A stretch of DNA of 64,000 bases, taken from the NCBI GenBank assembly GCA_963703235.1, contig OY969802.1, positions 1,805,782-1,869,781 of the forward strand, read 5' to 3'. The position numbers and the translations under genes are program-made. Below the pieces are notes generated by a model. It made no database searches and was not told where the DNA came from. It worked only from the letters and a program-made list of their open reading frames with translations. Every line of letters begins with the position of its first letter. Position 1 is the first letter of the stretch. Positions 10,532 through 28,118 of this stretch are shown piece after piece. This stretch comes from an uncultured Solirubrobacterales bacterium (GTDB taxonomy: Bacteria > Actinomycetota > Thermoleophilia > Solirubrobacterales > 70-9).

Positions 10532-10534
10532 GCC

Positions 10535-13500: not shown

Positions 13501-13849
13501 CTAACAGCGTCCTGCTCGGGGGCAGGGGTTCCGTGGCGGTGCAGGTGACCGTCTGGGCGACGACGCCACAGCTCAGGCCCCCCGAGCCTCCCGCGTCGAT
13601 CGGGGTAAGGCCGGTGGGCAGAGTGTCGGTAAGAGTGATTTCGCCACTGGTGGGGGCGGCACCGAAGTTGCTGGCGAAAAGAGTGTATTCGAGGTCTTTG
13701 CTTGCTCCAGGGGCGAAGTTGGTCGGCACCGAGGTCAGGGTGAGCTTCCAGGCAGGGGCCGGTTCCGCCGCCCCTGCAGTCGCGGGAAGGAGTGCCAGGA
13801 GCGCAAGGACGGCGCTGAGAGAGACAAGTGAGGCGGTGCGGCGGATCAT
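10535..13849 (-). CDS. large secreted protein of an unrecognised family (B2; paralog of 2049..4874) with an extra N-terminal DUF11-like repeat domain and a Cys-polybasic tail
   Basis: Track ORF of 1104 aa with signal peptide MIRRTASLVSLSAVLALLALLPATAGA. The N-terminal LTDTLPTGLTPIDAGG..LSCGVVAQTVTCT pattern is typical of DUF11/conserved-repeat domains. The remainder is collinear with B1. Ends in CKGKKRKAQGNRRRAR. ATGA overlap with the A2 stop. Confidence 0.8.
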   Translation of the reverse strand: MIRRTASLVSLSAVLALLALLPATAGAAEPAPAWKLTLTSVPTNFAPGASKDLEYTLFASNFGAAPTSGEITLTDTLPTGLTPIDAGGSGGLSCGVVAQTVTCTATEPLPPSRTLLVTISLEVGPLAEGSTVTNTATISGGGAAATQASTTTTISSNPAPFNFLAGEAGLFAPLTDVDGTPVTQAGGHPYQLMVGVGFPGERPSHFESLTGTEHPREVSIDLPPGVLGNPSALRTRCTEAQLNSQQFPGKGGCPESSQVGTIDVMAPLAGISFFYDSALYSMVPPPGAPAAFAFDAFGAGIFVHVIPSVRSDSDYGISARAGDILALDYHPLLGAQTGLWGDPSHPGHDNRRKTCLVPGPGDPPCPVEEPNTEAFLTMPGHCPGKPTVTKAHATSWEQPSVDQTAIYESSDLAGNPVSVEGCNALQFEPTISSQPTTNLADSPSGLEFELHQPQNTDLEGLSTAILKDATVTLPKGMAVNPSQADGLAVCTKEQIDLTTAVGETPAHFSKHPSECPDASKLGTVEVTSPLLAQYDEKQEVQRDPEGKPIPEPLHGSLYLAEPYQNPFESLIAIYLTVEDEKTGIFAKLAGEVIPDPVTGQLTTRFEENPQLPLEDVKLSLFGGARAPLITPPVCATHTTTSDLTPWSSPEGEDANPSDSFQTSVAPGGVACPSAEVGAPNAPSFSAGTIAPQAGSYSPFVLKLSRSDGSQRLAGIEATLPPGLSGKLAGVATCSEAQIATARARSNPLEGILEKKSPSCPASSELGTVDVAAGAGISPLHVEGRAYLAGPYKGAPLSIAVITPAVAGPFDLGVVVVRAALRVDPKTAQIHAVSDPLPTILEGVPLDVRQISMHMGRPQFTLNPTSCDPMQIAGIVTSALGQNASLFSPFQVGGCSQLPFKPKLSLRLKGGTKRADHPKLVATLRAKPGEANIAKAQVKLPRSAFLDQAHIRTICTRVQFAADSCPKGSIYGKATATTPILDYPISGNVYLRSSDNELPDLVVDLRGPAHQPIRIELAGRTDAVKGALRNSFDLLPDAPVSTFRLELFGGKRGLVVNSQNLCARKRRATVKLDGQNGMVFDSRPLVRSDCKGKKRKAQGNRRRAR

Positions 13850-16800
13850 CGGCGTGCTCCCTGGTTGGCGTTTGCTCGGTTGTGCTTTCGGTTGCGCTGT
13901 TTTTGCCCCGCGCAGCGGCCCCTGCCTTTCGCGCGCGCCACTCGCTTGCGCTTCGCGCAGCGCGGTTTTCCGTTGCGCCCGTCGGGGTTGGGGGGACCGA
14001 CGAAGCTGGCGCTGCCGGGCGAGGGGCTTACCGGCGGCGGGGTCGGCGCCGGTTTGCAGGCATCTGCCTCGCAGATCGGCGGCGGCGGCTGGTTCTGGGC
14101 AGCAAGACCGCCCTCTACGCGGACGTCATAGACGTCTCGCAGCGCGTCCTTGTCCTGGCCGACCAGCTGCTCGGTGGTGAAGAGGAAGGCGTCATCGCCG
14201 CTCGCGGAGGCGTCGGCGAAGAGCGAGGGCTCGCTGCTCTCGCCGTTGGAGAGCAGGTAGAGACAGCCGCCGTTGGAGAAGGTGCCTTCGCAGGAGCCAG
14301 ATCCTTCTGCCTCCCACATGTATACGTCTAGGCAGGTGGGGAAGATCTGGTTTTTCGAGCCGCTCCGCGGGCAGCCGTCCAAGCCGTTGACGTCGGCACC
14401 GACCAGCGCGTCTGTCGTCTCGAAGAAGACCCGCTCGCCGTCGGCGGAGAGGTTTCGGGTCGTCAGCGCTGATCCCCGCGCGGGAACCAGCGCCGACGGG
14501 GTCATCCTCGCCAGCGTCGGTATTCCCGTCGGCGGCGCGACGCTCGGCGCCGCCCCGGTCGGGTTGCAGGAGACGCAACTGAGGCCCTCCCCCACCCGGT
14601 AGCGGTAGAACTGCGGGACGCCTTCGTTCTCGTACTCGCTGAGCTTCTCCTGGGAGCGGAAGAGCAGGGTTTGCCCGTCGGGGCTGACGCGGGAGGTCTT
14701 CTGGAAGCTGTTGAGAGTAAGGCCCATCTGCGGGGTCGCAGAAGCCGACCAATTGGCCACGTCGCTCTTGCCCATCTCACCCGTTGCGTCGAGCCGCACG
14801 ACGAAGCTGATCTGCGCCCCGCCGCCTTCCATTTCGCGCCAGAGGTAGAGGTTGCAGTTGCCGCTCCCGCCCGCCACCGGCCCCTCGCAGTTCCCCGGCG
14901 TCGCCGGCCCGCCCCCATCGAGGTCGCCGTTGGCGGCGAAGTAGACGTGGGTGCCGTCCTGGGAGATGCCGAGCACTCCCTGGACGTCGGCGCCGTTGGC
15001 ATCGTCGGTGTCGAGGACCAGGTCAGACAGCTTCTCCCCCGTCGCGCTGTGGTCGTAGCGGTAGAGGTCGTTGCCCGCGTTGGGGACGACCTCCTGGTTG
15101 GCCGACCAGTGGATGTGGGTGGGGTCGACCGCCAGCCCCTGCGGGTGCCTGGCGCCTTTGACGAATTCCAGCTCGACTTCGGTGATCGCGCCCGGGTTGT
15201 TGAGTTTGGCCCGCCCGATCACGTCGTTTTTCTCATCGGCCCAGTAGAGCCGGTCGCCAGCGACGGCGATGCCGCGGAAGCGGTCGCTTTCGCTCGTGAA
15301 GAGGAGCACGGCGATGCCTTTCGGTTCGGCCAGCGGGACCCGCCGTATGCCTCCGGCGATGCCTTGGGTGAAGTAGAGGTAGGTGGCGTCGAGCACCACT
15401 CCCGCCGCGTTAAAACCGAAGGGCTCGCCGCCTTCATCCACCGTCCAGGGCTGGATCACTTCCCCGCCTTCGATCGTGGCGCGGGCGATGCCCTTAGTGA
15501 GGAAGGGAAATACAGTGCCGCTCCCCGCGTTCGCCCAGTAGATGTGAGTAGTGTTGACCGCGATCCCCTGCGGGTTGTGAGCACCGGTGATGAAGCTCGG
15601 TTTGACTTCTTCGCCGTCGAGCTCCGCCCGCCCGATCGTGCCGTTGCCGTTCTGGCCGTCGACGGCGTCGGTCCAGTAGACGTGTTCGGAGTCGGTCGTC
15701 ACCCACTGGGGTTTGACGGGAGCTTCGATGAAGCTCGGGTCGACTTCGGTCGTGCCGTCGAGGGTGGCGCGGCCGATCGTGCCGGCTTTGGGGTCGGCCC
15801 AGTAGACGTGGGAGCCGTTCACGGCGACCCCCAAGGCGGAGGCGGGAAGGAAGCCGAGGTCTTTGCCTTCGCCTTCCAGGTTCGCACGGGCGATCGCCGG
15901 CGCTTCTGGTTCGGGCCCGGTAGTGGCGTCGTCGGTCAGCTTCTCCGAGGAGGTGAAGAAGGTCTTGGTGCCGTCTTGGCTGGCGCCCATGAAGGCGGCG
16001 GGCTGGGTTCCGGCGGCGTCGCTTCCTTCGAACCCTGAGCCGTTGGTCTTCGCGGTCGCCGAGACGTGGATCGTGCAGGCCTTGGCCGCTTCGGTGCAGT
16101 TGCCTTCGATGTCGAGCGCGCTCTGTGGCTGGCTCGGGTTGAGGCGCAGGTAGAGCTGCCCGGTTCCCGCTGCGGTGAAGTAGAGCGAGCCCTCGGGGGT
16201 TACGGCGCGCTGTTCCTGGAGGTAGTAGCTGCGCGCGGTGCCGCCGGTTGAGAGGGTGGCCGGGCTGACGCCTTTCACCCAGTCATAGGGGCCGGCGAAG
16301 GCGCCTTGGGGGGGGCTCTGGCCGTCGTTTAGGACGCTGGCGAGGCCGATCTCGCCGCTGTCGCGATCCCAGGCGTAGAGGTTGGAGTCCCCTTCGAGAG
16401 CCGCTGGGGTCAGTTTGGCGTCGGCTTCGAAGATCGCCTTGGAGCCGTCGGCGGAGGCGCCGGCGTAGCGGGGGGCCAGGCCGGGGGTGTAGTCGACGAT
16501 CGTCTCCAGCGGCCCACCGTCGCCGGGGCGCCTCAGGAGCGTCGTCAGCTCGGGTTCGGTCAGTTTGGTCGCCTCGTCGAAGACCGCCGAGAAGTCGGGC
16601 AGCCAGCCGATCGCGTGGGCCTTCTGGCCGGTTGCCGCGGGGGGCAGGAGGCCTTCGGTGAACCAGCCTCCTGCGCCGCGGCTTGCCAGGTAGAGGGGCA
16701 TTTCCTGGGAGCCTTCTGCGCCGGGGAAGCCGGCGTCGCTCATGAAGGTGATGCCGTTGCCCGTGGGCGTCGCCTGGACAAAGGAGGAAAAGCCGATCGC

Positions 16801-17343
16801 GTGGCCGCCGTTCTTCTGCACGGGGGAGGCCTGCTCATAGGCGCGGCAGTCGGGAAGGTGGGCGGAGGGCAGATCAGTGCGGAAGGCGTCGTTCGGGCAG
16901 GGGTCGAAGAGAGGCGGGGGCAGATGGGTGGTGAAGGTGCGCTCGGGGCCGACGGTCGGGCCCGAGGGGCTGGAGGCGCGCAGGCGGTAGTGGTAGGTGG
17001 TGGCGGGAGTTAGGCCTTCGATCTGCACGGAGACCTCAACGCCTTTGTTCCCGGCGGGAATGGTCGGCGGGGAAGCGGGCGCTTTGGCGGGATTGGCGAA
17101 GCCTTCTGCTTCATAGCCCGCCCGATCGACGTAGTCGAGCTGGTATTTCGTCGGTTTTTCTTCTGGGTTTACGGTCGCCGCGATCGTCGCCGAGGTTTCT
17201 CCCACCTGGGTGGCTTTGGTGTTGGAGATCAGCGGCGGGCCGGCGGCTTGGGCGGGGGGGGCTGCGAGGGAGAGGGCTAGGGAGACGAAGAGAGCAGTGA
17301 GGATCGTGCGGCCCCGTGCCGAACCTCTTAGCTGGTGCGTCAT
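13846..17343 (-). CDS. secreted FN3 plus six-blade YWTD-type beta-propeller plus PD40-like protein (A2) with a Cys-rich C-terminal module and polybasic tail
   Basis: Track ORF of 1165 aa with a signal peptide ending ...LSLAAPPAQA. FN3-like N-terminus (TSATIAATVNPEEKPTKYQLDYV...TTYHYRLRAS). Six blades: HVYWAD, HVYWTD, HIYWAN, YLYFTQ, RLYWAD, HIHWSAN. C-terminal module CVSCNPTG...DVYMWEAEGSGSCEG...DVYDVRVEGG...ICEADAC. Tail CAKRKRVARAKGRGRCAGQKQRNRKHNRANANQGARR. Confidence 0.85.
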   Translation of the reverse strand: MTHQLRGSARGRTILTALFVSLALSLAAPPAQAAGPPLISNTKATQVGETSATIAATVNPEEKPTKYQLDYVDRAGYEAEGFANPAKAPASPPTIPAGNKGVEVSVQIEGLTPATTYHYRLRASSPSGPTVGPERTFTTHLPPPLFDPCPNDAFRTDLPSAHLPDCRAYEQASPVQKNGGHAIGFSSFVQATPTGNGITFMSDAGFPGAEGSQEMPLYLASRGAGGWFTEGLLPPAATGQKAHAIGWLPDFSAVFDEATKLTEPELTTLLRRPGDGGPLETIVDYTPGLAPRYAGASADGSKAIFEADAKLTPAALEGDSNLYAWDRDSGEIGLASVLNDGQSPPQGAFAGPYDWVKGVSPATLSTGGTARSYYLQEQRAVTPEGSLYFTAAGTGQLYLRLNPSQPQSALDIEGNCTEAAKACTIHVSATAKTNGSGFEGSDAAGTQPAAFMGASQDGTKTFFTSSEKLTDDATTGPEPEAPAIARANLEGEGKDLGFLPASALGVAVNGSHVYWADPKAGTIGRATLDGTTEVDPSFIEAPVKPQWVTTDSEHVYWTDAVDGQNGNGTIGRAELDGEEVKPSFITGAHNPQGIAVNTTHIYWANAGSGTVFPFLTKGIARATIEGGEVIQPWTVDEGGEPFGFNAAGVVLDATYLYFTQGIAGGIRRVPLAEPKGIAVLLFTSESDRFRGIAVAGDRLYWADEKNDVIGRAKLNNPGAITEVELEFVKGARHPQGLAVDPTHIHWSANQEVVPNAGNDLYRYDHSATGEKLSDLVLDTDDANGADVQGVLGISQDGTHVYFAANGDLDGGGPATPGNCEGPVAGGSGNCNLYLWREMEGGGAQISFVVRLDATGEMGKSDVANWSASATPQMGLTLNSFQKTSRVSPDGQTLLFRSQEKLSEYENEGVPQFYRYRVGEGLSCVSCNPTGAAPSVAPPTGIPTLARMTPSALVPARGSALTTRNLSADGERVFFETTDALVGADVNGLDGCPRSGSKNQIFPTCLDVYMWEAEGSGSCEGTFSNGGCLYLLSNGESSEPSLFADASASGDDAFLFTTEQLVGQDKDALRDVYDVRVEGGLAAQNQPPPPICEADACKPAPTPPPVSPSPGSASFVGPPNPDGRNGKPRCAKRKRVARAKGRGRCAGQKQRNRKHNRANANQGARR
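13905..17250. repeat. segmental duplication, copy 2 (pairs with 7143..10475)
   Basis: Same evidence as copy 1. Identical blocks 13905-14299, about 14815-15280 and about 15476-15735, with diverged patches between them. Confidence 0.85.
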
Positions 17344-17381
17344 TTTAGTTCCTCTCGCAACGCTCTTAGCTGGTGTGTCAT
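17340..17381 (-). other. 13-codon upstream ORF (MTHQLRALREELK) created by tandem duplication of the A2 RBS and start region
   Basis: Units 17325-17358 and 17363-17398 are near-identical, so GAGAGGAAC-TAAAA(AA)-ATGAC(G/A)CACCAGCTAAGAG occurs twice. The distal ATG at 17381 opens a 13-codon frame. Its TGA (17342-17340) overlaps the A2 ATG (17343-17341). Confidence 0.3.
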
Positions 17382-17468
17382 TTTTTAGTTCCTCTCGCCG
17401 CGACAGCTCATCGCGATGTGGATGAGCCCGGACAGTTGCGAGCCATCCAGGCTCATCCCCTTCGTCGA

Positions 17469-18296
17469 CTAAGGAGCCAGTTCAGCGGTCACGGCCCAAG
17501 CGCCGTACGCAAACCAGTCTTCGGTCGGTTCGAATTTGAGGAGGGCGCCGCTCTCGCTGGCGGCGTCTTCGACGACGGCGCTGAGGGTAAATATTTTCGG
17601 TGCCAGAGTGCCGGATAGCGCGGCTTCGAATACGCACAGCTCACCCGGGGCGGCGACCGGGTTGTTGACGCCCCCTTCGGGACCACACTCGGGGTTTTCT
17701 TCAAGGATCTGTTCGAAGAAGGTGACGAAGTGGACATCGTCTTCCCCCAGCTCCGAGGCCAGTTTGATCGGGAAGGAGATCGAGGTATAGGCGGTCGCGG
17801 GCGACGCAGGACCGCTCGCAGCCCAGGCCCCCGTCAAGGTCGCGCCGGGGGGAAGCTCGTTGTCGGGGACCCAGGGTTTGCCATCTTCGCCGGCCTCGCC
17901 CTGTTCGCCGTTGCAGATTTCGGTGCTGGCTTGCCCTTCGACCATGACGCCGCCTCGTCCTCCGCATTCAGGGTCGCCGAATTCGATTTCGGTGGCGGTG
18001 ACGGATTTGCCGGCGGCGCCAGGATCGCCTTTGGCGCCTTTTTCGCCATTGGCTCCGTTAGCACCGTCTTTGCCGTTGGCACCGGCGGGTCCTTGCGGCC
18101 CGGCCGGTCCGGCGGGACCGGCCGGGCCCGGTTTACCGGGTTTTCCCGGTTTGCCCGGTTTGCCCCTTTTGGCGGAGGCGGTGGCGCCGTCGCCTGAGTC
18201 GTTGGCGGCGTAGGCGCCGCCGAGCATCGCGAAGACGAGGGCGATCACCGAGATCGCGCCCGGGATGCCGAAGCGGTTGCGTAGCGGTGAGAGCAT
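17469..18296 (-). CDS. membrane-anchored collagen-like (GXY repeat) protein with a Cys-containing C-terminal globular domain
   Basis: Track ORF of 275 aa. N-terminal hydrophobic anchor GAISVIALVFAMLGGAYA, then 18 uninterrupted GXY triplets (GKPGKPGKPGKPGPAGPAGPAGPQGPAGANGKDGANGANGEKGAKGDPGAAGKS). RBS ggagaagag lies upstream of the ATG. Confidence 0.8.
   Translation of the reverse strand: MLSPLRNRFGIPGAISVIALVFAMLGGAYAANDSGDGATASAKRGKPGKPGKPGKPGPAGPAGPAGPQGPAGANGKDGANGANGEKGAKGDPGAAGKSVTATEIEFGDPECGGRGGVMVEGQASTEICNGEQGEAGEDGKPWVPDNELPPGATLTGAWAASGPASPATAYTSISFPIKLASELGEDDVHFVTFFEQILEENPECGPEGGVNNPVAAPGELCVFEAALSGTLAPKIFTLSAVVEDAASESGALLKFEPTEDWFAYGAWAVTAELAP
18003..18164 (-). repeat. collagen triple-helix GXY coding repeat, including a 4 x 9-bp tandem (GGNAAACCN = GKP) at about 18127-18165
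   Basis: Read directly from the translation and from cccggtttaccgggttttcccggtttgcccggtttgccc. Confidence 0.85.
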
Positions 18297-18560: not shown

Positions 18561-20054
18561 TTAAGCCGGAGCGGGGTCGAGCAGTACCAGGCCCCGTTCT
18601 TCTGCCTCGTCGGGTGCGACGAGGGCGTTGGTCCGCTCGAGGTGGCGGAGCGCCCGTGACATGTTCGACCAGTCGACGAGCGAGGACCAGCGCTGAGCAC
18701 GCTCGGCCATTTTCAACAGCGGCTCGGGGTTCGCCTGGCGACTCAACGCCCGCAAAGCACCGAGGTAGTCGGCTCGATAGCAGAGGGGGACCATGACCCG
18801 GCACTGACCGGCGGCGCTCAGCTCGGCGTTGAGCAGGGCCCGGGAGACGCGGCCGTTGCCGTCGGCGAAGGGGTGGACCTCGCTGACGGCGAACATCGCG
18901 AAGAGGGCCCGGGGGAAGCCGGCGGGGAGGGTCTCATAGAAGCTCCAGGCCTCGCGCAGGGTGCCGAGGACGAGGTCGGGGGCGACGAAGCTGGTCCCCC
19001 CCGCCCGGTTGGCGTGCTGCTTCCATTCGCCGGGGGCTTTGTTGGGGCGTTTCTCCAGAATGCGCCGGTTCAGCAGCCGCAGGAGCTCAGCGAAGTCGTC
19101 GGCGTCGCTCGGCGTGTGGGCGCGCAGCGCGGGGTCGGTGACGACGCCGAAGGTGCCAAGGACATCATGCGCGTCTTCCGGTCGCTCCTCGGGGATGACG
19201 CCGCCGAAGACGATCTCCTCCGCCTCCTCGACCTCGAACTCGGTGCCCTCGATGAAGTTCGAGAAGTAGGCCTCGAAGAAGGCGAAGACGCGCTCTGGAT
19301 CGGCGGGCTCGGGGCGCAGCGCCGCGACGTGGCCGGCAAGGGCGCCGTGCAGCCTCTCGAAGAGGGCGACCCGGGCGGCATCGAAAGGGTCGCGGCGACT
19401 CCGGGCCCGCCCGGGCTCGGTGACCAGGCGGGTGTCGCCGGTCCCGAGCAGCGCGGAGATCAGCTCGTCGAGCTGCTGGCGCTGCTCCGGCTCGGCGGAG
19501 AGGGTCGGGGCGAGTTCGCGGGCCTCGTCCCTGAGCCGCAGCAGGTCCCCCTCTCCGCGGTTGCGGGCGATCCGCTCCAACCACTCCTCCAGCTCGGCAC
19601 GGGTCAGGGTCCGAGGCACTCCAACCCGGCCGCGCGAGGGACGCACGTTTTCGAGCGCGGTGCGGGCCTCGCCGCTGCGGTAGAGAGGACCGAACTCCAT
19701 GTCGCCCTCGGCCGGGCCGGGGCCGGAGCGAGGCCGAAGAACGAGCCCGGGCAGCCGTACGGCGGTGGGATTCGCCGGCTCGGGCCCGGAGTCGAGGAAG
19801 AGCGAGCCGTCGGCCGCCGGTCGGGCTTCCACCGCCGAGCGACCGACCAGTACCGCGCCGGGGAAGTACAGTGCCGCGACGTCCATCCAGCGGCGTCGCA
19901 GCAGGCGCTCGGCCGGCTCGTCGAGGTTCCAGGTGTAGAGGCCACGCGCGAGGCGGCGCAGCTCACCACGGCGCAGGGCGCGGCCGGCGGCGTCCGCGTC
20001 GGCAGGCCGGAAGACCTCCGGTTCGCCCGAAAAGCTCTGTTTAGCGTCCGCCAT
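18561..20054 (-). CDS. Fic/DOC family protein with an AbiEi-antitoxin-like N-terminal region
   Basis: Track ORF of 497 aa. Canonical Fic motif HPFADGNGRVSR. The N-terminus GELRRLARGLYT...ALYFPGAVLVGRSAVE resembles the AbiEi_4 wHTH signature. Confidence 0.85.
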   Translation of the reverse strand: MADAKQSFSGEPEVFRPADADAAGRALRRGELRRLARGLYTWNLDEPAERLLRRRWMDVAALYFPGAVLVGRSAVEARPAADGSLFLDSGPEPANPTAVRLPGLVLRPRSGPGPAEGDMEFGPLYRSGEARTALENVRPSRGRVGVPRTLTRAELEEWLERIARNRGEGDLLRLRDEARELAPTLSAEPEQRQQLDELISALLGTGDTRLVTEPGRARSRRDPFDAARVALFERLHGALAGHVAALRPEPADPERVFAFFEAYFSNFIEGTEFEVEEAEEIVFGGVIPEERPEDAHDVLGTFGVVTDPALRAHTPSDADDFAELLRLLNRRILEKRPNKAPGEWKQHANRAGGTSFVAPDLVLGTLREAWSFYETLPAGFPRALFAMFAVSEVHPFADGNGRVSRALLNAELSAAGQCRVMVPLCYRADYLGALRALSRQANPEPLLKMAERAQRWSSLVDWSNMSRALRHLERTNALVAPDEAEERGLVLLDPAPA

Positions 20055-20150: not shown

Positions 20151-21422
20151 CTACGGACCCAGCAGGGCTGCGGGCACGACACCGATCCCGTCAGACCGGC
20201 GGTAGGCATGCTCGCCGGTGGTGACGACCAGCGCGTCGAGGAGTTCGTCGCCGATCTTCTTTCTCAGCCACCCGAGGTGACTGAGGTCGGCGTCCTTGAT
20301 CGTCCGTTTCAGCTTGACCTCGATCGCGATCACCCGGCCGTCCTGACGCTCGACGATGAGGTCGACCTCGCGGTCCCCCCCATAGGTGCGAAGGTGGCCG
20401 ATCCGTGCCTCGGCGTGTTGCCCATAGACCCTGACGCAAAGGGTCACGAGGGACTCGAAGAGCGCTCCGAGCAGCGTCCCATCCCGTGGCAGCGGTGGGC
20501 CGAGCTCCTGGTTCTCAAGCAGAGCTGGAGCAGTCGCACCCAGCAGGCGAGCCGCCAATGCCGGGTCCGCCAGCTGGTGCTTCGGTGCGGCCGAGAGTCG
20601 CGAAAGATGGCGACGGGTGGGCTGCCAGGCCGGTACCGGATCGAGGATCCAAAGCCGTTCCAGCACGCTCCGGTACGGCGCCGCTCCACGCCGCGAAGGC
20701 TTCTCCCCCTCGCCCCCCGTCGCGGCATCGCGAATCTTCTCGAACGACGTGGCGGTGGATGAGGCCGCCGCATAAGCGGTCATCCAACGGCGCAGCCCCG
20801 ACGGGTTGCGCACTTCGTGTTGCAGCTCGGCGAAGTCGCGGTCGACTATCCGGGCCAGGTATCCGTCGAGCTGAGTCCTCAGTGCCCGATCGGGGAGGCC
20901 CATGAGGCCGGGGAAGCCCGAGGCGACTATCTCCCGGGTGTAATCGTCCAGGCTCATGTTCGTCTCGCCGGAGAGTTCGGGCCGCCCCCCATCCAGGAGC
21001 TCCGAGAGGCTTACCGAGCCGGCTCCGCCGGCCCGCTCGATCAAAGACAGGGGGCGCATGCGGATCGTCGGGATGCGCCCGGCTCCGGAGTGCCTGCCGA
21101 CGCCGTCCGGCGATGCGGATCCGGTCAGCAGGTAGCGACCTGGCTCGCCTCCGGCGTCCACGGCGCGGCGGACCAGGTCCCAGCTCTCCGGCAGGCGCTG
21201 CCACTCGTCGAGCAGGATTGGCGGATCTGCCTCGAGGAGTCGCTTGGGATCCGCTTCGGCGAGCGCCAGATCGTCGGGATCGTCCAACCTGTGCACGGTC
21301 TTCGCGCGACGAGACGCGGTCTCCGTCTTGCCGACGCCTTTGGCGCCCTCGATGGCGAGCGCCGGCAAAGAGCCCAGCAGCTCGTCCAGCTCTTTCTCGA
21401 CGATTCGATGGCGATAAGCCAT
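20151..21422 (-). CDS. AAA-family ATPase with a DUF4143-type C-terminal PD-(D/E)xK-like domain
   Basis: Track ORF of 423 aa. Walker A EGAKGVGKT, Walker B-like ILLDEWQ. The C-terminal REVDLIVERQDGRVIAIEVKLK matches a D...E-x-K nuclease-fold motif. Confidence 0.8.
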   Translation of the reverse strand: MAYRHRIVEKELDELLGSLPALAIEGAKGVGKTETASRRAKTVHRLDDPDDLALAEADPKRLLEADPPILLDEWQRLPESWDLVRRAVDAGGEPGRYLLTGSASPDGVGRHSGAGRIPTIRMRPLSLIERAGGAGSVSLSELLDGGRPELSGETNMSLDDYTREIVASGFPGLMGLPDRALRTQLDGYLARIVDRDFAELQHEVRNPSGLRRWMTAYAAASSTATSFEKIRDAATGGEGEKPSRRGAAPYRSVLERLWILDPVPAWQPTRRHLSRLSAAPKHQLADPALAARLLGATAPALLENQELGPPLPRDGTLLGALFESLVTLCVRVYGQHAEARIGHLRTYGGDREVDLIVERQDGRVIAIEVKLKRTIKDADLSHLGWLRKKIGDELLDALVVTTGEHAYRRSDGIGVVPAALLGP

Positions 21423-21506
21423 CGAATTAGGTTACCATTTCGCAGCTTGGTGGTAGCCCATTTCGCAGCTCCTTGCTAACCAATGCCGCGCGGTGTTGCG
21501 GTCTAC

Positions 21507-21540
21507 GCGCTCGTCGCCGTCGAACTCGGTCTGCCTGAGC
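21507..21540. repeat. 34-bp direct repeat, left copy (pairs with 27531..27564)
   Basis: gcgctcgtcgccgtcgaactcggtctgccTgagc here against gcgctcgtcgccgtcgaactcggtctgccAgagc at 27531, which is 33/34 identical and in the same orientation. The left copy is intergenic. Confidence 0.9.
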
Positions 21541-21559: not shown

Positions 21560-21931
21560 TCAGGTTTCCCGGTCCGCGTCGTCCGCCACCTGCCGCAGCT
21601 CCTCGATCGCGGGGCGGAGGGCGGCGACGCGTCTCAGCAGGGCGAGCCGTTCGGCCGGGGAGGGCGATTCCGGCTTGCCGCCGGGCACCGGAGGTGGCAG
21701 GTCGAGCAACTCCTCGACGCCGATCCCCAGTACCACCGCGATTCGCTCGGCTTTGTCGACCCTGACCCGCTCCTGAGCGCCGCTGCGCCAGGCGCCGATC
21801 GTGTCCTTGTTGACGCGGCTGCGTTCCTCCAGCTGCCGCACGGTGAGGCCGGCCGCGCTCATGAATTCGATCAGGCGTCCCGCAAGGCCGGGCGAGTCGA
21901 CCATCACGATACTGGCGCTGTACGGGCTCAC
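21560..21931 (-). CDS. XRE-family helix-turn-helix transcriptional regulator
   Basis: Track ORF of 123 aa, GTG start. HTH segment LIEFMSAAGLTVRQLEERSRVNKDTIGAWRSG. Divergent from the next ORF, with repeated boxes in the shared promoter region. Confidence 0.7.
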   Translation of the reverse strand: MSPYSASIVMVDSPGLAGRLIEFMSAAGLTVRQLEERSRVNKDTIGAWRSGAQERVRVDKAERIAVVLGIGVEELLDLPPPVPGGKPESPSPAERLALLRRVAALRPAIEELRQVADDADRET

Positions 21932-22002
21932 CCGTACAGAATGGCAGGGTTTGTCCGGTTATACCCGTACGCTGTGCCGACGATGTCGGAACGGACCCGT
22001 AC
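21920..22002. promoter_or_regulatory. operator-like ACCCGTAC boxes in the divergent XRE/hypothetical promoter region
   Basis: ACCCGTAC occurs at 21930, 21963 and 21995, with 32-33 bp spacing. An inverted copy GTACGGG at 21920 forms GTACGGG-ctca-CCCGTAC across the XRE start codon. Confidence 0.4.
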
Positions 22003-22564
22003 GCCGCCAGATCGCTCTCGAGAAAATCCCGAAGCTCGCGACGGCGCGCGCCTGCGACTGGTCCGCTCAGGGGCAGCCGACGGCACGACCTCGGCCAGCG
22101 AGCGCCTCCACCTGCCACCGAGCCGACGCCTCGAGGAGTTCGTCCACGCGGCGGCGGAGGCCGGGCTTGAACCCGCCGACGCGGTGCGGCTGGCGCTGGA
22201 GCGCGCCCTGGCCCTCGCCGACGCGGCGATCCTGCCGCTCGATGTGGAGGCCGCGCGCAGCCGCTTGAGCGAGGCTGCGGCCAGGGCAAGGGCGGGACGG
22301 CCGCTGACCGCCGCCCAGTCCGCCTACGTGCGCTCGCTCAGCGCCAAACGAGCGCGGCCGACCCCCGAGATCGGCGACGGGCTGGTCGTCGTCCTTCCCG
22401 ACCGGGTGCTGACCCGAGCCCGCGACACGGCGACCGAGACGGCCTTCCACGCCGGCGCCGTGGCGGAGATGGCAGCCTGGGAGATCGCCGCCACCCTCGA
22501 GGGCCGGACGATGGGCGAATGGGCGCTGCGCACTCTGGCGGCTGACAGCGCCGCCGTGGCCTAA
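21983..22564 (+). CDS. hypothetical protein (193 aa from the internal ATG; the track ORF starts at 21941)
   Basis: GC3-rich ORF divergent from the XRE gene. No recognisable motifs. Its 3' end overlaps the stop of the convergent 1083-aa gene by 4 nt. Confidence 0.45.
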   Translation: MSERTRTPPDRSRENPEARDGARLRLVRSGAADGTTSASERLHLPPSRRLEEFVHAAAEAGLEPADAVRLALERALALADAAILPLDVEAARSRLSEAAARARAGRPLTAAQSAYVRSLSAKRARPTPEIGDGLVVVLPDRVLTRARDTATETAFHAGAVAEMAAWEIAATLEGRTMGEWALRTLAADSAAVA

Positions 22565-25500
22565 GCGCCGCCCGCCTCGGCTGAGCCCGAGGCCTCGGCG
22601 GCGTCGTCCACCCGGGCGCCGTCGGCGCGCAAGTCCAGCGGCGCCTCGGCGAGCGCCGGCGCCTCGCGCCTCAGGGCCGCGCTCACGGCGCCGATCCGCT
22701 CGGCAAGCAGGTGGATCGCCCCCCTCGCGTCGACGGCCACCGGCCGCAACCGCTCGCGGTCCTCGTCGCCGTCGCCGAGTTCGACGTCCTCCGACAGCTC
22801 GCGGCCGGCGGCGTCGTCGCGCAACGCGGCCGAGCAGAGCTCCCACGCCGCCGGGGCGACGAAGACGTCGTCCGTCTCGGCGTCCGCGTCGCATTTCTTG
22901 GCCAGCTTGGTGACGCGGTTCAGGCAGCCGGCGACCGTGTTCCTCTCGTTGTGGCCGACCAGAAGCTCTCCTGCGTCGACGGCGGCATGGAAGCGCCAGT
23001 GCGGCTCGCCCTTGCGGTCGACGCCGAACGCCCTCGCATGCAGTTGGATCGCAGCGCCGCAGAGGACCGCCGGGTCGCCGACGGGGAATTCGATCCAGAG
23101 GTCGTCGCCCGCCGGCTCCCTCCCCTCCCGGCCGAGGAAGGCGGCGATCCAAAGCGTCGCCATCCCGAGGCCGCTGTTCCTCCAGGCGCGATCGGCCCGG
23201 GGCTCGTTCTTGCGGGTGTGGCTGCGCGAGCCGGCGAGGTCGACCGAGAGCACGGAGGCGTGTCGATCGACGTCTCGCGGCGGGCGGAGCCGAACCAGCT
23301 CACGGTCGGCCGGTCCCGCCGCAGCGGCGACGAAGGTGCGGACCTGCTCGAAGACGGAGAGCAGCTCCTCGGCGGCTGCCGCGATCGCCTTCTTCGTCTG
23401 GCGCGGAGGCAGCGGCACCTCGCCGCCGTCGACGAGCGAGGTCAGGGCCCGGCAAGCGCGCGCGGACGCGGCAACCGCGGCCTCGGAGGCCGCCTGCCCA
23501 GATGCCTGCTCACCCCTCCAGGCGAGGACCGAGGCGCCGTCCAGGCTCTCGACGAACGCCGCCAGGGCGGAGATCAACTCGACGAGCTGTCGCGGCAGCT
23601 CGTAGATGGCGCGCTCGGCGGGCGCCCGCAGCGAAGCGAGCACGCGGCGCTCGGGCTTCGGTGGCTTCTTACCGGGCCGCCGCTCCGCCGGCTTCTGCCA
23701 ACGCTCGCGAAGCGGTGCGCTCCAGTCGCCGTCGAGCAGCTGCAGCTTGGCGCGCGCCGCCGCCAGGTGCTCCTCGGCGCGGATGGCGACGCCATGCGAG
23801 CGTTCGTGAGGTTCCTCGCGGAGAATCAGGTTGAGCGGCCGCGACAGCGCCTCGACGGCGGCCTCGATCGAGCTGCGCACGTGGGTCAGGCCGAAGCGCC
23901 CGTCCGTGCACATCGCCCACGCCTTCAGCATGGCGTCAAGCCGCGCCGGCTCCAGCTCGTCGAGGAAGGGCGCCAGCAGCCCGACGTGGGCATCGATCTC
24001 AGCTGCGCTCTTGCGCAGGTCGAGCGAGAGCGCGTCGTCGTCCCAACCGCGCCGGAACCGGCGTGTCGGTTTGACCGCGCCGCCCTTGACGCTGTAGAAG
24101 CGGGAGGTGTGCTCGCCCAGCGGCACCGGCCTCTCGCTGTGCAGGAGGACCGGCTCGGGCGCGCCGGGGCTCGGCCTCACTTCGAGCACGATCGACTGGT
24201 CCTCGAAGACGAGCGGCTGCAGGATCGCGACGAGCGAGGTAAGCATCTCCAGCGGGATAGGCTCGCCCGCGAACCGCTGTGAGCGGTCGGCGACGCAGTG
24301 GCAGATCGCCGCCGCCGCCTCCTCCGAGAGGCCGAGGCGGAAGGCATTGACGTTGTGGGGCTGCTCGTCCCGGCCCAGCTCCGAGACCCGGTACTTGCGC
24401 TGCGCCAGAAGCGAGCCGTCGGCGCGGGGCTCGACGGCGACGAACGGCACGATCGTCGTCGTCGCCAGGCCGAAGTCGACGCAGCGGCTGGCGAGCAGCG
24501 GGTCGCGGTCCGGCAGGGCGGCGACGATCTCCGGCAACGAGCGTCCCGTTCGCACGGCCGGGTCGTGCTCGGGATGCGCCAACCACTCCTCGTACATCGC
24601 CCGCAGCTCGGCCTCCATCGACTCGGTGGCGTCCGCAACCCGCGAGTCGAGGAACAGCTGCGGCGCGCCGCCCTCAACCCGCTCGAAGGACGCCTCGCGC
24701 GCCGCTGCGGCGTCGAGGTCGGCCGCGACGTGAGCGACGACGGCAGCGGCCAGGTCGGGGCCGTAGAGGCGCTCGAACGGCTCCCGCTGGGCGACCAGCT
24801 CGGCGCCCGGGAAGTCGGCGGCCAGCACCGTGGCGAGGCCGCATGCCAGCTCCACCTCCATGCCTGCCGAGAGCGCTTCGAATGCCGTCTCGGCGTCGAG
24901 CGCCCTCGCCTCGCCGGCGAGCAGCTCACCGACGCTGCCCGCGCGGCCGACCGCCGCGCGGATCCGCTCCCTGACGGGGTCGGCGGAGTAGCGGGGGCGA
25001 TGGAGATCGTCGGGCGGCGGCAGGGTCAGCGCCGGGAAGGCGACGGGAACGACGTAGACGCAGTCGTTCTGCGGGTCGGGGAAAAAGCGCAGCTTGCGCG
25101 GTCCGGCGGCGCCCCCCTCCTCCTCGCCGCCCGGCGCGATCCCGGGCAGGGCGGGGAAGTGCAGCGTCATCGGGTGGAATTCGTCGCGCCGCTCGCGCGA
25201 GGCGTCGATCGTCACCGTGCCGTAGGCGCCAAGGGCCTCCTCCAGCTTCCACCAGCTCCGCTGCAACCGCTCCGGCAGGCGCAGCTCGAAGAGGAAGTGG
25301 TCAACCTCGGGCGGCAGGCCGCGGGCGACGACCAGCTCGGTCAGCTGCCAGACGTACTCGCGGTAGAGGTCGTCCTCGACGCTCAGGTAGCAGTCGGCGC
25401 CGGGGTGGGCGACGTCGGCATCGCCGACGCAGGCGACCGCCTGGGCGACCGTCGCCCCGTAGGACTCGACCCGGGCGCGGTGACGCTCCAGGTTCGCCCC

Positions 25501-25812
25501 GGTCTTGACCGCGTCGTCGACGATCATCACACGGCTCCGCCCGAGTGCCTCGGGGTCCATGTAGGCGAGGGCGGAGCCGCAGATCACCGGCACGCGGACC
25601 GGCACCAGCAGCTCCTGGCGGGCGTAACGCAGCACCGCCTCGAGCAGCCTCACCCCTTTCGTCTCGGCCGGGACCAGGTAGTCGGGTTCGCGCTGCTCGA
25701 TCTGCTCCAGCAGCCAGCTCGCGAACCCGGGCAGCAGGTTGCGCTCGAACGCCGTCTTGCCGCGCCCCCGCTGACCGCGGTGCAGCGACGGATTCGCCAG
25801 GGTCGCCTCCAT
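22561..25812 (-). CDS. 1083-aa multidomain protein with an N-terminal type I phosphoribosyltransferase-like domain and a C-terminal class III nucleotidyl-cyclase-like domain
   Basis: Track ORF. PRPP-loop signature SRVMIVDDAVKTGANL, preceded by LVPAETKGVRLLEAV. C-terminal motifs ASVLSVDLAGS, AGDDLWIEFP, WRFHAAVDAGELLVG, VAGCLNRVTKLAKK and DDVFVAPAAWELC are collinear with the cyclase homology domain core motifs. The CDS call is strong. The domain calls come from motif recall only. Confidence 0.8.
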   Translation of the reverse strand: MEATLANPSLHRGQRGRGKTAFERNLLPGFASWLLEQIEQREPDYLVPAETKGVRLLEAVLRYARQELLVPVRVPVICGSALAYMDPEALGRSRVMIVDDAVKTGANLERHRARVESYGATVAQAVACVGDADVAHPGADCYLSVEDDLYREYVWQLTELVVARGLPPEVDHFLFELRLPERLQRSWWKLEEALGAYGTVTIDASRERRDEFHPMTLHFPALPGIAPGGEEEGGAAGPRKLRFFPDPQNDCVYVVPVAFPALTLPPPDDLHRPRYSADPVRERIRAAVGRAGSVGELLAGEARALDAETAFEALSAGMEVELACGLATVLAADFPGAELVAQREPFERLYGPDLAAAVVAHVAADLDAAAAREASFERVEGGAPQLFLDSRVADATESMEAELRAMYEEWLAHPEHDPAVRTGRSLPEIVAALPDRDPLLASRCVDFGLATTTIVPFVAVEPRADGSLLAQRKYRVSELGRDEQPHNVNAFRLGLSEEAAAAICHCVADRSQRFAGEPIPLEMLTSLVAILQPLVFEDQSIVLEVRPSPGAPEPVLLHSERPVPLGEHTSRFYSVKGGAVKPTRRFRRGWDDDALSLDLRKSAAEIDAHVGLLAPFLDELEPARLDAMLKAWAMCTDGRFGLTHVRSSIEAAVEALSRPLNLILREEPHERSHGVAIRAEEHLAAARAKLQLLDGDWSAPLRERWQKPAERRPGKKPPKPERRVLASLRAPAERAIYELPRQLVELISALAAFVESLDGASVLAWRGEQASGQAASEAAVAASARACRALTSLVDGGEVPLPPRQTKKAIAAAAEELLSVFEQVRTFVAAAAGPADRELVRLRPPRDVDRHASVLSVDLAGSRSHTRKNEPRADRAWRNSGLGMATLWIAAFLGREGREPAGDDLWIEFPVGDPAVLCGAAIQLHARAFGVDRKGEPHWRFHAAVDAGELLVGHNERNTVAGCLNRVTKLAKKCDADAETDDVFVAPAAWELCSAALRDDAAGRELSEDVELGDGDEDRERLRPVAVDARGAIHLLAERIGAVSAALRREAPALAEAPLDLRADGARVDDAAEASGSAEAGGA

Positions 25813-25920
25813 GGGCGACTCAAGCTACACCTTGAAACGACCGTTTTGTTTCCGAAACCTTGCAGATTGCGGCGAACTGACGCAGTCGCCTCCCAACGGG
25901 GGGAGGTCATCGACAGAGAG

Positions 25921-25955
25921 CTAGGACATAAACTAGGACATATTGCTCAATGTCC
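25921..25955. promoter_or_regulatory. repeat array (CTAGGACATA x2 and GGACAT-N8-ATGTCC) in the lower-GC region upstream of the PRTase-cyclase gene
   Basis: ctaggacata at 25921 and 25933. Inverted repeat GGACAT attgctca ATGTCC at 25936-25955. Further GTCC/GGAC half-sites extend to about 26005. Confidence 0.35.
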
Positions 25956-25994
25956 CAGTTTATAAGTTCCTTGTCCGAGCTTTTGGTCCTAGTC

Positions 25995-27407
25995 CTAGCT
26001 CGTGTCCGAGTCCGGCTTCTGCCCGGCCAGGCGGTAGCGACGCCGGGGGTTGTTGACCGGCCCGTCGCTCGGCGCGACCCGGCCGTCCGCCTGCATCGCA
26101 GCGAGGATGCGGCGCACCTGCCTCACGCTGACGCTGAGGGCCTCGGCGAGCTCCTTGGGCGAGCGCTCGGCCCCCTTCAGCAGCTCGATCATCTCGACCG
26201 AGCGATCGCGCCGCTCGCGCTTGGGCGCCGTCGAGACTGCGGCCGCCGCCTGCGAGTGTGGCCGCAGCGTCACGCGCAGGATCGGGCCGGGCTCGGTCCA
26301 CTCCGGCAGCGGGTAGCCGCGCTCCGAGGCGGCGAGCGCCTTGGCGTAGGCGGTGCCGTGCTTCTCCACGTAGCCGAGGGCGTGGAGGACGTTCATCACG
26401 GCCCGGTTGCGGACGCGGCTGATGCCCTCTTCGAGCTGCTCGACGCTCATGCCGACGGGCATCCCACCGGGGCTGTCGATGACCAGGCGATCGCTGTAGA
26501 TCGAGACGTTGAGGTGCATCCCGGGGGCGCTGTAGTCGGCGTGGGCGACGGCGTTGTGCAGGATCTCGCGCAGGACCTCCGGGTCGTAGTGGGAGATGTC
26601 CCGCCGGCGACGACCGGGCAAGTCTTGAGCAACGCCGGTGTTGCGGGCGATGAAGTTCTCCACCTCCTCGATCGCCCCCAGGAGCGGCACGTCCACCCAT
26701 TCGGCAGAGTCGATCGCGTCGCCGCCCTTGTCCATACCCGGATAGCGAATCGCCCGGAAGTAGGCGTCGGGGAGAAAGCGGCCCGGCTCCTTCCCGAACA
26801 GCAGCACACCAGCATGCGTGGGAACGAGCTGGTCGTTCTGAAAGACGGCCAGCTCGAAGCTCTCGAGCTTTCCCTCGTCGATCTCGACGCCGACCTGGCC
26901 GAAGGCCGCTTCGATCGCCTCGCGATCGACGTCCTCGAGCGTCGCTGCGGCGGCCGGCAGCTGATCGAAGCCATCGCGCCCGCGCCGCTCGCGGCGGATC
27001 TGCTCGAGGCGCGCCTCGTCGGTCACCGGCATCGCGTTGGAGCCGACCCGCTCGTAGACAGTCGACTTCTCGCCCTCGCGCAGCGCCAGCGGCTCAGGGC
27101 CCTGGAAGAACTGTGCGTCGACGACCACGACCTCCTTGTCGTCCTGGGTGGCGATGCTGACCAGGGGCGACTGGCGCGGCTCGGTCAGGTCGTAGATCGC
27201 CTGCGAAACGGCCTGCTCAACCCCCTGCGGGCTCTCGAGGCCGACGACGTTGCGATCGTCGTCGACGCCGATGACGATCCAGCCGCCGGCGGTGTTGCAG
27301 AAGGCGACGAAGCACTTGGCGATCCCGCGGGGCGAGGAGGCGTCGAGCTTGAAGTCGACGGCGCGACCCTCCCGCTCGCCGAGGAGCTCTTCGATCAGCC
27401 TGGCCAT
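25995..27407 (-). CDS. Schlafen/AlbA_2 domain plus HATPase_c_4-like plus C-terminal wHTH protein (COG2865 'RecG-like' putative regulator family)
   Basis: Track ORF of 470 aa. N-terminus EGRAVDFKLD...IAKCFVAFCNTAGGWIVIGVDD is the AlbA_2 pattern. The middle REILHNAVAHADYS...VIDSPGG is HATPase_c_4-like. The C-terminus SPKELAEALSVSVRQVRRILAAMQADGRV is wHTH-like. Confidence 0.75.
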   Translation of the reverse strand: MARLIEELLGEREGRAVDFKLDASSPRGIAKCFVAFCNTAGGWIVIGVDDDRNVVGLESPQGVEQAVSQAIYDLTEPRQSPLVSIATQDDKEVVVVDAQFFQGPEPLALREGEKSTVYERVGSNAMPVTDEARLEQIRRERRGRDGFDQLPAAAATLEDVDREAIEAAFGQVGVEIDEGKLESFELAVFQNDQLVPTHAGVLLFGKEPGRFLPDAYFRAIRYPGMDKGGDAIDSAEWVDVPLLGAIEEVENFIARNTGVAQDLPGRRRRDISHYDPEVLREILHNAVAHADYSAPGMHLNVSIYSDRLVIDSPGGMPVGMSVEQLEEGISRVRNRAVMNVLHALGYVEKHGTAYAKALAASERGYPLPEWTEPGPILRVTLRPHSQAAAAVSTAPKRERRDRSVEMIELLKGAERSPKELAEALSVSVRQVRRILAAMQADGRVAPSDGPVNNPRRRYRLAGQKPDSDTS

Positions 27408-27419
27408 CCTGGTCGGCCG

Positions 27420-28118
<699 letters not shown>

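Follow-up and report, generated by a model that had tools for sequence, protein, structure and literature searches.

A predicted phosphoribosyltransferase–cyclase fusion protein and its convergent partner gene in an uncultured Solirubrobacterales bacterium

A stretch of 64,000 nucleotides (nt) from an uncultured Solirubrobacterales bacterium (assembly GCA_963703235.1, contig OY969802.1, positions 1,805,782 to 1,869,781 of the forward strand; the whole stretch is hereafter called the window) carries a long minus-strand gene at 22561–25812. Its product joins a phosphoribosyltransferase (PRTase)-like domain at the N-terminus to a class III cyclase homology domain at the C-terminus, and a second gene converges on it from the opposite strand. 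The original prediction, which was made from the letters of the window, had proposed a giant, undescribed and self-contained protein of nucleotide signalling or defence. In this study, the composition, family and surroundings of this fusion gene were investigated using profile searches, structure modelling and locus comparison, thereby providing a basis for weighing its possible roles.

The fusion protein, its domains and its relatives

The fusion gene and its parts were delimited as follows, with protein positions given in amino acids (aa):
22561–25812, minus strand: fusion gene, 1,083 aa, comprising PRTase-like domain, hood, helical/winged-helix/beta middle, helical bundle and class III cyclase homology domain
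25333–25740, minus strand: type I PRTase-like domain, aa ~25–160 (PF00156, family profile, Foldseek, column conservation)
25003–25332, minus strand: hood domain, aa ~161–270, about 110 aa directly after the PRTase core, no fold match
24013–25002, minus strand: helical and beta-rich middle without known relatives, aa ~271–600 (DSSP of models, invariant columns)
24373–24552, minus strand: winged-helix-like unit, aa ~421–480
23293–24012, minus strand: long helical bundle or coiled coil leading into the cyclase domain, aa ~601–840 (helices 603–832 in the model)
22663–23292, minus strand: class III cyclase homology domain, aa ~841–1050 (profile, Foldseek, column counts)

The open reading frame starts at ATG and comprises 1,083 codons, and its GC content at third codon positions is 0.92, where the real genes of this window (~70% GC) have values near 0.9. 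The identical protein and 86 relatives (87 in total) were recovered in a search among 5.8 billion proteins; nearly all relatives are 1,040–1,110 aa long, with 30–52% identity and more than 90% query coverage. The start codon, third-position composition and database relatives bear out the giant single reading frame of the original prediction, and every motif quoted there was found in the translation:
aa 46–60, PRTase region: LVPAETKGVRLLEAV
aa 93–108, PRTase region: SRVMIVDDAVKTGANL
aa 852–862, cyclase domain: ASVLSVDLAGS
aa 901–910, cyclase domain: AGDDLWIEFP
aa 939–953, cyclase domain: WRFHAAVDAGELLVG
aa 960–973, cyclase domain: VAGCLNRVTKLAKK
aa 981–993, cyclase domain: DDVFVAPAAWELC

The family has about 90 full-length relatives, and the titles of their genomes point to soil metagenome-assembled genomes of Solirubrobacterales and Conexibacteraceae (Conexibacter). 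Among GTDB species genomes, just 13 loci carried the patterns of the family, a patchy distribution. The family is small, well defined and taxonomically narrow.

Searched as a single protein, the fusion gave nothing in Pfam, NCBIfam or PADLOC except a sub-threshold PRTase match, and no PADLOC family was obtained at E ≤ 1. Its domains could be recognised only with the help of a profile of the family and a model of the structure. The profile was built on an alignment of 39 family sequences (A1), and all column counts below are out of these 39. An AlphaFold2 model was generated with the same alignment (predicted local distance difference test score, pLDDT, 86.6; predicted template modelling score 0.87) and compared with the PDB using Foldseek.

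At the N-terminus, PF00156 was matched by the fusion protein over aa 31–133 with E = 1e-3 and 18.9 bits, under the cut-off of 26.3 bits, and was matched individually by 31 of the 39 family members (best E = 8.5e-8). The family profile identified the purine PRTase 1vdm among PDB sequences over aa ~89–144 (E = 3.3e-5), and Foldseek returned the HGPRT structure 5esw (E = 5e-4). The pyrophosphate (PPi) loop, P48-x-E50-T51-K52-G53-x-R55, is nearly invariant. The loop for phosphoribosyl pyrophosphate (PRPP), V95-M-I-V-D99-D100-A-V-K-T104-G105, has the form of four hydrophobic residues, two acidic residues, three variable residues and T/S-G, with D99 in 37 sequences, D100 in 36, and T/S104 and G105 in all 39. 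The assignment of a type I PRTase-like fold thus stands.

The hood takes the place of the canonical hood or base-binding subdomain of PRTases, and the strongest conservation in the entire protein falls on its residues. Its invariant elements are G-L-P-P-E169-V-D171-H172, T216-L-H218-F-P, K240-x-R242 and D246; E169, D171, H172, H218, K240 and R242 are all invariant. No fold in the PDB or BFVD matched it. The PRTase core and hood point to a functional pocket that they would build together, because D171, H172, K240 and R242 persist even in very distant relatives.

At the C-terminus, the family profile matched the PDB sequences of Rv1900c (1ybt, E = 1.3e-5) and Ma1120 (E = 3e-4) over aa ~841–989. 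Foldseek placed the model with class III cyclases at E ~1e-5 and target TM scores (TMt) of 0.75–0.83; the Rv1900c domain reached 0.76–0.83 (1ybu_B, TMt 0.83), and Cya2, CyaC and Ma1120 were also among the matches. The Pycsar uridylate cyclase 8jsz was a weaker match (E = 1.3e-3, TMt 0.55). No member of the 39 matched PF00211 at E ≤ 0.1. The class III cyclase-like C-terminus was therefore upheld as a fold by profile and Foldseek. Both domains are, on the profiles and the model, real but divergent, because the single protein falls below the PF00156 cut-off and no member matches PF00211. That the folds might prove to be something other than a PRTase and a cyclase, a possibility raised in the original prediction, was not borne out.

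The residues of the cyclase centre were compared with canonical class III positions (mammalian and mycobacterial numbering), whose mapping onto the family columns we take to be correct. D858 and D903 are present in 39 of 39 sequences and align to the metal-binding Asp residues of 1ybt and Ma1120 on beta1 and beta4; the predicted catalytic Asp pair thus shows no variation within the family. The phosphate-loop Ser862 occurs in 35. The position of the adenine-specifying Lys, 899, has D in 16 sequences, E in 5, P in 4, S in 3 and other residues in the remainder, with E in the fusion protein itself; the substrate-Asp position 958 is Asn in 36, including N958 here. The canonical substrate-specifying pairs (Lys/Asp for ATP, Glu/Cys-type for GTP) are absent from the family, and a check on substrate-specifying residues, which the original prediction had called for, consequently returned neither an adenylyl nor a guanylyl cyclase pair (899 E/D, 958 N). 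The transition-state Asn position 965 is divided between D (20) and N (18), and the Arg position 969 is mostly Lys (K in 28, R in 3); the fusion protein has N and K. The earlier statement that the Asn is kept and the Arg replaced by Lys is accordingly right for this protein, and the Lys is right for most of the family, but the Asn is not a family trait.

Judged from these columns, the transition-state chemistry would be similar to that of class III cyclases but not canonical, and binding of nucleoside triphosphate (NTP) and metal is very likely retained. The term cyclase is used here for an assignment of fold and metal site, as read from alignment and model, and not of product; base and product are left unassigned, given that neither canonical pair, for adenine or for guanine, is found.

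Between hood and cyclase domain, the model places helical segments, the winged-helix-like unit, a beta-rich segment and the helical bundle in that order. The winged-helix-like unit is near-invariant at S442-R443-C444, G448, V455-P456 and R472-x-Y474-R475 (RxYRVSE). By sequence, the helical bundle matched designed coiled coils alone (E > 0.05). Residues 160–600 were modelled separately (pLDDT 88) and searched by Foldseek against the PDB and BFVD: no structure was found below E = 0.05, and the low-confidence matches were small helix-turn-helix (HTH) and winged HTH proteins alone. Matches of the middle to O-methyltransferase and flavivirus NS5 folds were set aside as noise or small winged-helix overlaps. 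The original prediction that some 650 aa between the two domains match nothing was confirmed against Pfam, the PDB (sequence and fold) and BFVD. No description of a PRTase–cyclase fusion was found in the literature searched, and the architecture, being absent also from PADLOC v2 and, for the middle region, from Pfam, does appear undescribed.

The PRTase and hood (PRT-hood) extend far beyond this family. A profile search of 1.84 billion cluster representatives gave 926 matches within an E-value limit of 1e-3, of which 94 also passed a limit of 1e-30, and hidden Markov models (HMMs) of single segments showed that PRTase and hood always travel together in distant relatives. The pair occurs in stand-alone proteins of ~440 aa and in proteins of ~1,000–1,150 aa from other, lower-GC lineages; cyclase-bearing forms of ~1,000 aa extend to other phyla. 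Across distant relatives the motifs D-H, (T/S)-L-(H/D) and K-(L/I)-R persist, and a cyclase-like C-terminus is kept in several long relatives (P0115, P0120, P0127, P0139, P0147, P0161, P0170 and P0178). Three low-GC relatives of ~1,120–1,160 aa (P0157, P0165 and P0174) bear before the PRT-hood an N-terminal HTH_17 domain, which is MerR/excisionase-like and similar to PADLOC mad1; the cyclase-like C-terminus of P0157 reads VVVDAHGF … GGDGALVTF. In PADLOC, distant relatives of ~440 aa reached the models of the PRTase effectors ShosT, PsyrT and PRTase_III-A marginally (E 5e-4 to 8e-3); the PRTase_III-A model was matched by P0166 alone (E = 0.006). Among plasmids, no relatives were found for P0166, and P0157 gave just HTH or cyclase-TPR fragments.

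One relative differs at its C-terminus:
locus L036, 509–4222, plus strand: TIR variant P0123, matched to the fusion scaffold up to ~785 and ending in a TIR/bSEFIR (SEFIR) domain
This variant has lost both cyclase metal Asp residues (R and W instead) together with hood residues K240, R242 and H218, and is followed by an STIV_B116-like gene in the place of the partner. Effector swapping is typical of immune proteins, and P0123 gives a hint of it in this family. A TIR clade was considered and rejected: P0123 is a singleton, and the effector-swap argument is drawn from one sequence.

The convergent partner, its regulator and the islet

The genes and sites next to the fusion gene are as follows:
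21983–22564, plus strand: conserved partner gene, ~180–193 aa, annotated from ATG 21941 as 207 aa (21941–22564)
21560–21931, minus strand: gene of an XRE-family HTH repressor, transcribed divergently from the partner and encoding 123 aa if it starts at GTG 21931 and 114 aa if at ATG 21904
21920–21937, no strand: predicted operator O1, perfect palindrome GTACGGGCTCACCCGTAC at the 5' end of the XRE gene
21953–21970, no strand: predicted operator O2, GTCCGGTTATACCCGTAC, 13 nt ahead of the start of the partner, at a distance of 33 nt from O1
25813–26018, minus strand: lower-GC spacer upstream of the fusion gene, with palindrome GGACAT-N8-ATGTCC, two copies of TATGTCCTAG and a 19-nt tandem repeat of 2.8 units
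25968–26018: the 19-nt × 2.8 tandem repeat, within the spacer

The fusion gene has an obligate convergent partner. The partner converges on it so closely that the stop codons overlap by 4 nt, and its real start was placed at 21983 by alignment of homologs (A2, A5; ~50% identity). Using a partner HMM, the gene was found on the opposite strand and directly downstream of the fusion gene in 19 of 21 distinct assessable loci, that is, loci with enough sequence next to the fusion homolog. The partner family consists of just 31 clusters, which lie on the same contigs as fusion homologs and were found only with them. Its C-terminal motif is EMxxWExAAxLxxRTMxEWxL. The partner had no match in Pfam (single protein and 10 members), in PDB profiles or in PADLOC, and its alignment contains no conserved Cys or His, no recognisable enzymatic motif and no HExxH. 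A CapP-like peptidase was ruled out as the identity of the partner, since conserved His and Cys are lacking. Its sequence pattern might hint at a ribbon-helix-helix N-terminus, a suspicion that carries no weight in the readings below. At locus L002 (13225–13791, minus strand), the partner contains an in-frame stop (…VR*PIP…) and is otherwise conserved over its full length; a pseudogene, a sequencing error or read-through are possible.

In the remaining two loci, an unrelated gene of 236–262 aa, also convergent, occupies the same position:
locus L015, 13172–13960, minus strand: type-B partner
locus L016, 8840–9547, minus strand: type-B partner
These loci (L015, and L016, which is the same as L028) belong to the most divergent clade of the fusion family, and the two type-B copies are 56% identical. 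A relationship to the type-A partner was rejected (hhalign probability 0.2%), and type B had no Pfam or PADLOC match. Because convergent order is kept across a non-homologous replacement of the partner, the comparison suggests that tail-to-tail transcription may itself be part of the design of the cassette.

The XRE protein carries HTH_31/HTH_26 (Pfam, on an identical Logan contig) and resembles PADLOC capH (E = 3.7e-5). Its homologs adjoin the partner in L001, L004, L006, L017 and L037, and different small HTH genes take its position in some other loci. The pattern GTMCGG-N6-CCGKAC, shared by O1 and O2, has 2 matches in the 64 kb, where 0.06 are expected, and both fall in the ~78-bp spacer between XRE and partner; elsewhere it was found only in the partner/XRE spacers of L001/5, L004/8, L006 and L017, mostly as pairs 32 bp apart. 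The XRE gene may start at ATG 21904, because the N-terminal M-x-P-Y conservation is explained by operator O1. The claim of a self-contained protein is thus contradicted by the convergent partner in 19 of the 21 loci, by an unrelated partner in the other two, and by the XRE gene with its operators in several.

Upstream of the fusion gene, the XRE operator pattern is absent and no motif is common to the loci. The lower-GC spacer with its repeat array, as originally described, is present; it probably serves as a promoter/operator region and shows no conservation in the other loci. Neither sigma-70-like promoters nor terminators above background were detected in the cassette. AT-richer palindromes at 25920–26020 could be binding sites of the AlbA_2/HTH protein described below.

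The cassette lies in a 6.0-kb islet bounded by direct repeats, with defence-type genes inside and outside it:
21506–21540, no strand: left 35-nt direct repeat
27530–27564, no strand: right 35-nt direct repeat, 34/35 identical, within the 3' part of a response-regulator gene
27420–28118, minus strand: intact OmpR-type response-regulator gene holding the right repeat
25995–27407, minus strand: SLFN_AlbA_2 + HATPase_c_4 + HTH gene (Pfam), inside the islet and co-directional with the fusion gene
20151–21422, minus strand: PDC-S01 gene (AAA_14/DUF4143 ATPase), just outside the islet, end-to-end PADLOC match at E = 7e-76, candidate defence family
18561–20054, minus strand: Fic gene, 497 aa, just outside the islet, similar to SoFic/PDC-S04

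The islet consists of the XRE, partner, fusion and AlbA_2 genes. The flanks of the two repeats are unrelated, and the direct repeats, first noted as 34 bp, are confirmed as 35 nt with 34 identities. The AlbA_2 gene has PADLOC similarity to the Schlafen/AlbA_2 parts of pAgo-associated proteins and had no tblastn match in the other loci of the family. The Fic, AAA-nuclease-like, XRE and Schlafen/AlbA_2 neighbours that had been proposed are present as Fic, AAA_14/DUF4143, XRE and SLFN_AlbA_2, and by PADLOC the neighbourhood is defence-island-like, as had been expected; the stretch around the islet looks like a small defence island in its gene content. Farther out, past the PDC-S01 and Fic genes, the window has topA, tmk, holB and a two-component system.

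Each locus of the family has different neighbours, and no synteny is kept beyond partner and XRE, so that homologs in conserved housekeeping operons, which would have spoken against the original prediction, were not encountered. L004 adjoins a serine recombinase, Replic_Relax and an IetA-like AAA protein; L039 has KAP NTPase, CARF_STK_AAA (E = 4e-225), HicB and PIN genes as neighbours; in L038 the cassette sits after an FtsW/PBP/PknB/Ddl cluster; and other loci lie within polysaccharide or 2-oxoacid dehydrogenase clusters.

Several further observations were made in the window. A 23-nt tandem unit at 21435–21480 (CCATTTCGCAGCTTGGTGGTAGC / CCATTTCGCAGCTCCTTGCTAAC) lies just upstream of the PDC-S01 start and beside the left 35-nt repeat, and could be an operator or part of an insertion scar. 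Four adjoining genes form a run encoding very large, probable surface proteins:
7430–10531, minus strand
10535–13849, minus strand
13846–17343, minus strand
17469–18296, minus strand
This run (7430–18296) comprises two paralogous proteins of ~1,030–1,165 aa with fn3, purple-acid-phosphatase-N, LDL-receptor class B and PD40 repeats, a 1,104-aa DUF11 protein and a collagen-triple-helix-repeat protein. Over 8–18 kb of the window, there is a shift in both GC skew and AT skew. A 22-nt direct repeat (17325–17346 and 17363–17384; CTCTTAGCTGGTG[C/T]GTCATTTT; copies 38 nt apart and 95% identical) is located at the start of the gene for the 1,165-aa repeat protein and shortly before it. The 64 kb contain no tRNA gene and no Rfam family at threshold. 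A cobalamin riboswitch might be expected upstream of a B12-dependent ribonucleotide reductase gene, and no Rfam match was found upstream of the class II (B12-dependent) gene at 37672–40683.

A candidate conflict module and its rivals

The obligate partner, the repressor with its operators, the mobility shown by the repeat-bounded islet and the changing contexts, the defence-type neighbours and the conserved catalytic-type residues are considered together here. On sequence, model and analogy, the fusion gene may be the core of a small, horizontally mobile conflict cassette, a candidate anti-phage/abortive-infection or addiction module with a dual nucleotide-converting effector, and not a housekeeping signalling enzyme; we tentatively prefer this reading, with a confidence just short of even.

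Under this proposal, whose enzymatic activities, direction of inhibition, trigger and role against phages we infer, the fusion protein would act as a large dimeric effector with two metal-dependent centres. The N-terminal PRTase-like domain and hood would bind either PRPP or a 5-phosphoribosyl nucleotide and probably turn it over, in the manner of the PRTase effectors of type III retrons and ShosT, and the C-terminal class III cyclase centre would use an NTP whose base is unassigned. The middle of ~570 aa (winged helix, beta domain and coiled-coil bundle) may dimerise the protein and gate both centres. The partner would be a cognate modulator; an antitoxin-like inhibitor is the likeliest form, a receptor of the product a less likely one. 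The CapH-like XRE protein, acting on the two palindromic operators, would set partner expression; the convergent layout may add transcriptional interference and, with XRE control, set the ratio of partner to effector, a balance that infection or loss of the element would tip.

Several results weigh against this proposal. No PADLOC model matches the fusion protein or the partner, and classic toxin–antitoxin pairs are co-transcribed, not convergent. An N-terminal sensor with a C-terminal cyclase is the standard layout of ordinary signalling cyclases. The islet contains no integrase between its repeats, and some loci lie between ordinary metabolic or cell-wall genes. No relatives were found in IMG/VR viral contigs, leaving a viral origin unsupported, and the TIR variant P0123 stands alone, on a contig of 4.8 kb that lacks the partner.

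Should the cassette prove to be a module of defence or addiction, it would represent a new effector logic, in which one polypeptide attacks or rewires nucleotide pools at both PRPP and NTP, and would add a new regulatory scaffold of ~650 aa and a new partner family. The convergent gene order would then be shown to be conserved despite replacement by an unrelated partner, and the PRTase effectors of retrons, ShosTA and Ophion would be tied to a larger PRT-hood superfamily.

Among the alternatives, a metabolite-gated second-messenger synthase survives best, though we consider it rather unlikely. This reading is close to the first of the two options in the original prediction. Here, a non-catalytic PRTase-like sensor of PRPP, (p)ppGpp or a purine nucleotide, comparable to PurR, would switch the cyclase through the helical bundle and produce cAMP or cGMP for physiology, with partner and XRE as a local regulatory pair. 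The succession of N-terminal ligand domain, coiled-coil transducer and C-terminal cyclase is the standard class III layout, the closest structural matches are common cyclases of mycobacteria and cyanobacteria and not PycC, the PRPP and PPi loops are kept while the canonical base-recognising parts are replaced, and some loci do lie among housekeeping genes. A patchy distribution with just 13 loci in GTDB species genomes, the lack of synteny beyond partner and XRE, the direct-repeat-bounded islet and the defence-type neighbours nevertheless argue otherwise. The canonical adenine/guanine-specifying pairs are absent, and in P0123 the PRT-hood and cyclase sites have degenerated jointly, which is unexpected for an indispensable sensor. 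A cyclase gated by PRPP or an alarmone, if that is what the protein is instead, would newly connect purine metabolism with cyclic-nucleotide signalling in actinobacteria.

An improbable second alternative is a Pycsar-like pair, in which infection would lead to a cyclic mononucleotide, possibly with an unusual base, and the convergent partner would be the receptor/effector that stops growth. The intact metal Asp pair and phosphate loop, the uridylate cyclase 8jsz among the fold matches (E = 1.3e-3) and the strictly co-occurring second gene are consistent with it, and the non-canonical residues at 899 (E/D) and 958 (N) would allow a substrate other than a purine. Yet the fusion protein matches no PADLOC Pycsar model, and the partner, which has no Pfam match, has no cyclic nucleoside monophosphate (cNMP)-binding, TIR or transmembrane domain and neither conserved Cys/His nor a recognisable enzymatic motif; in addition, two unrelated partner families occupy the same position, and the conserved PRT-hood would be left without a role.

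Somewhat less probable again is the possibility that the PRTase-hood and cyclase centres cooperate within one dimeric enzyme to make a new signalling nucleotide, for example one built from PRPP and NTP that is cyclic or phosphoribosylated and has a non-canonical base, and that the partner or its replacement reads this signal. If true, second-messenger immunity based on nucleotides would gain a categorically new branch, with a synthase architecture and a receptor of its own.

Most doubtful is a regulator without enzymatic activity that belongs to a mobile element and acts mainly as a scaffold binding DNA or RNA, whose PRTase- and cyclase-like domains serve ligand binding or dimerisation: the strongly conserved winged-helix unit, HTH_17 in distant relatives, the non-canonical transition-state residues and the scaffold that P0123 keeps after losing catalytic residues would fit it, but the metal Asp, phosphate-loop Ser, PRPP-loop DD and hood D-H/K-R residues are invariant or nearly so in ~40 diverged sequences, a pattern that is difficult to account for unless the sites catalyse a reaction or bind a ligand tightly.

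Comparison with known systems

On present sequence comparison, the fusion protein lacks the defining features of Pycsar, retron type III, ShosTA/PsyrTA and CapH/CapP. With the class III cyclases Rv1900c, Ma1120, Spirulina CyaC and Synechocystis Cya2 it shares the catalytic fold (TMt 0.75–0.83), both metal Asp residues, the GS(T) phosphate loop and a long helix before the C-terminal cyclase domain. It differs from them in that its family has no PF00211 match, the specificity pairs are replaced by E/D899 and N958, the transition-state Asn position is D/N and the Arg position mostly Lys, and the gene has an obligate convergent partner and mobile, variable contexts. To our knowledge, a PRTase-hood N-terminus is not known as a regulatory domain of class III cyclases.

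The PRTase effectors of Retron-Eco11 (type III-A), ShosT, PsyrT and OpnC of Ophion resemble the fusion protein in the type I PRTase core with its PRPP loop and in a conflict-type context. The Retron-Eco11 effector comprises a PRTase and a winged helix and causes PRPP depletion (PMC12746101); the PRTase toxin ShosT, which its partner keeps in check, disturbs purine metabolism (PMC11961720); and OpnC offers a further precedent of a PRTase effector (bioRxiv 10.1101/2025.09.30.679545). The retron PRTase motif is Gx14PNNxP (PMC12746101), whereas the hood motif of the fusion protein is GLPPEVDH (PPExDH / KxR) and no PRTase_III-A match was obtained; moreover, no reverse transcriptase domain was present among the called neighbours of the family loci and no Rfam family in the window. 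The fusion protein also has ~600 further residues and a fused cyclase domain that these effectors do not have. It is distinguished from ShosTA/PsyrTA by the lack of a PADLOC match for itself or its partner and by a partner that is convergent and without a DprA domain.

The resemblance to Pycsar consists in the class III-type cyclase fold, in a two-gene cassette associated with a defence island and in 8jsz as a detectable fold relative. Ordinary adenylyl/guanylyl cyclase domains are nevertheless closer than PycC (TMt 0.83 vs 0.55), PADLOC gives no Pycsar match, and the two genes are convergent and not an operon. The partner has no cNMP-binding, transmembrane or TIR domain, and no cNMP_binding gene was found among the neighbours in 9 loci.

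As in CapH/CapP, an XRE gene similar to capH lies beside the system with palindromic operators. Unlike in CapH/CapP, no M78 metallopeptidase or HExxH is present in partner or neighbours, the divergent gene is the ~180-aa partner, and the operators lie in front of this partner and not of the large effector gene. Set against type II toxin–antitoxin modules, the strict co-occurrence of the partner and the XRE gene with operators would fit, but the genes of the cassette are convergent and not co-transcribed.

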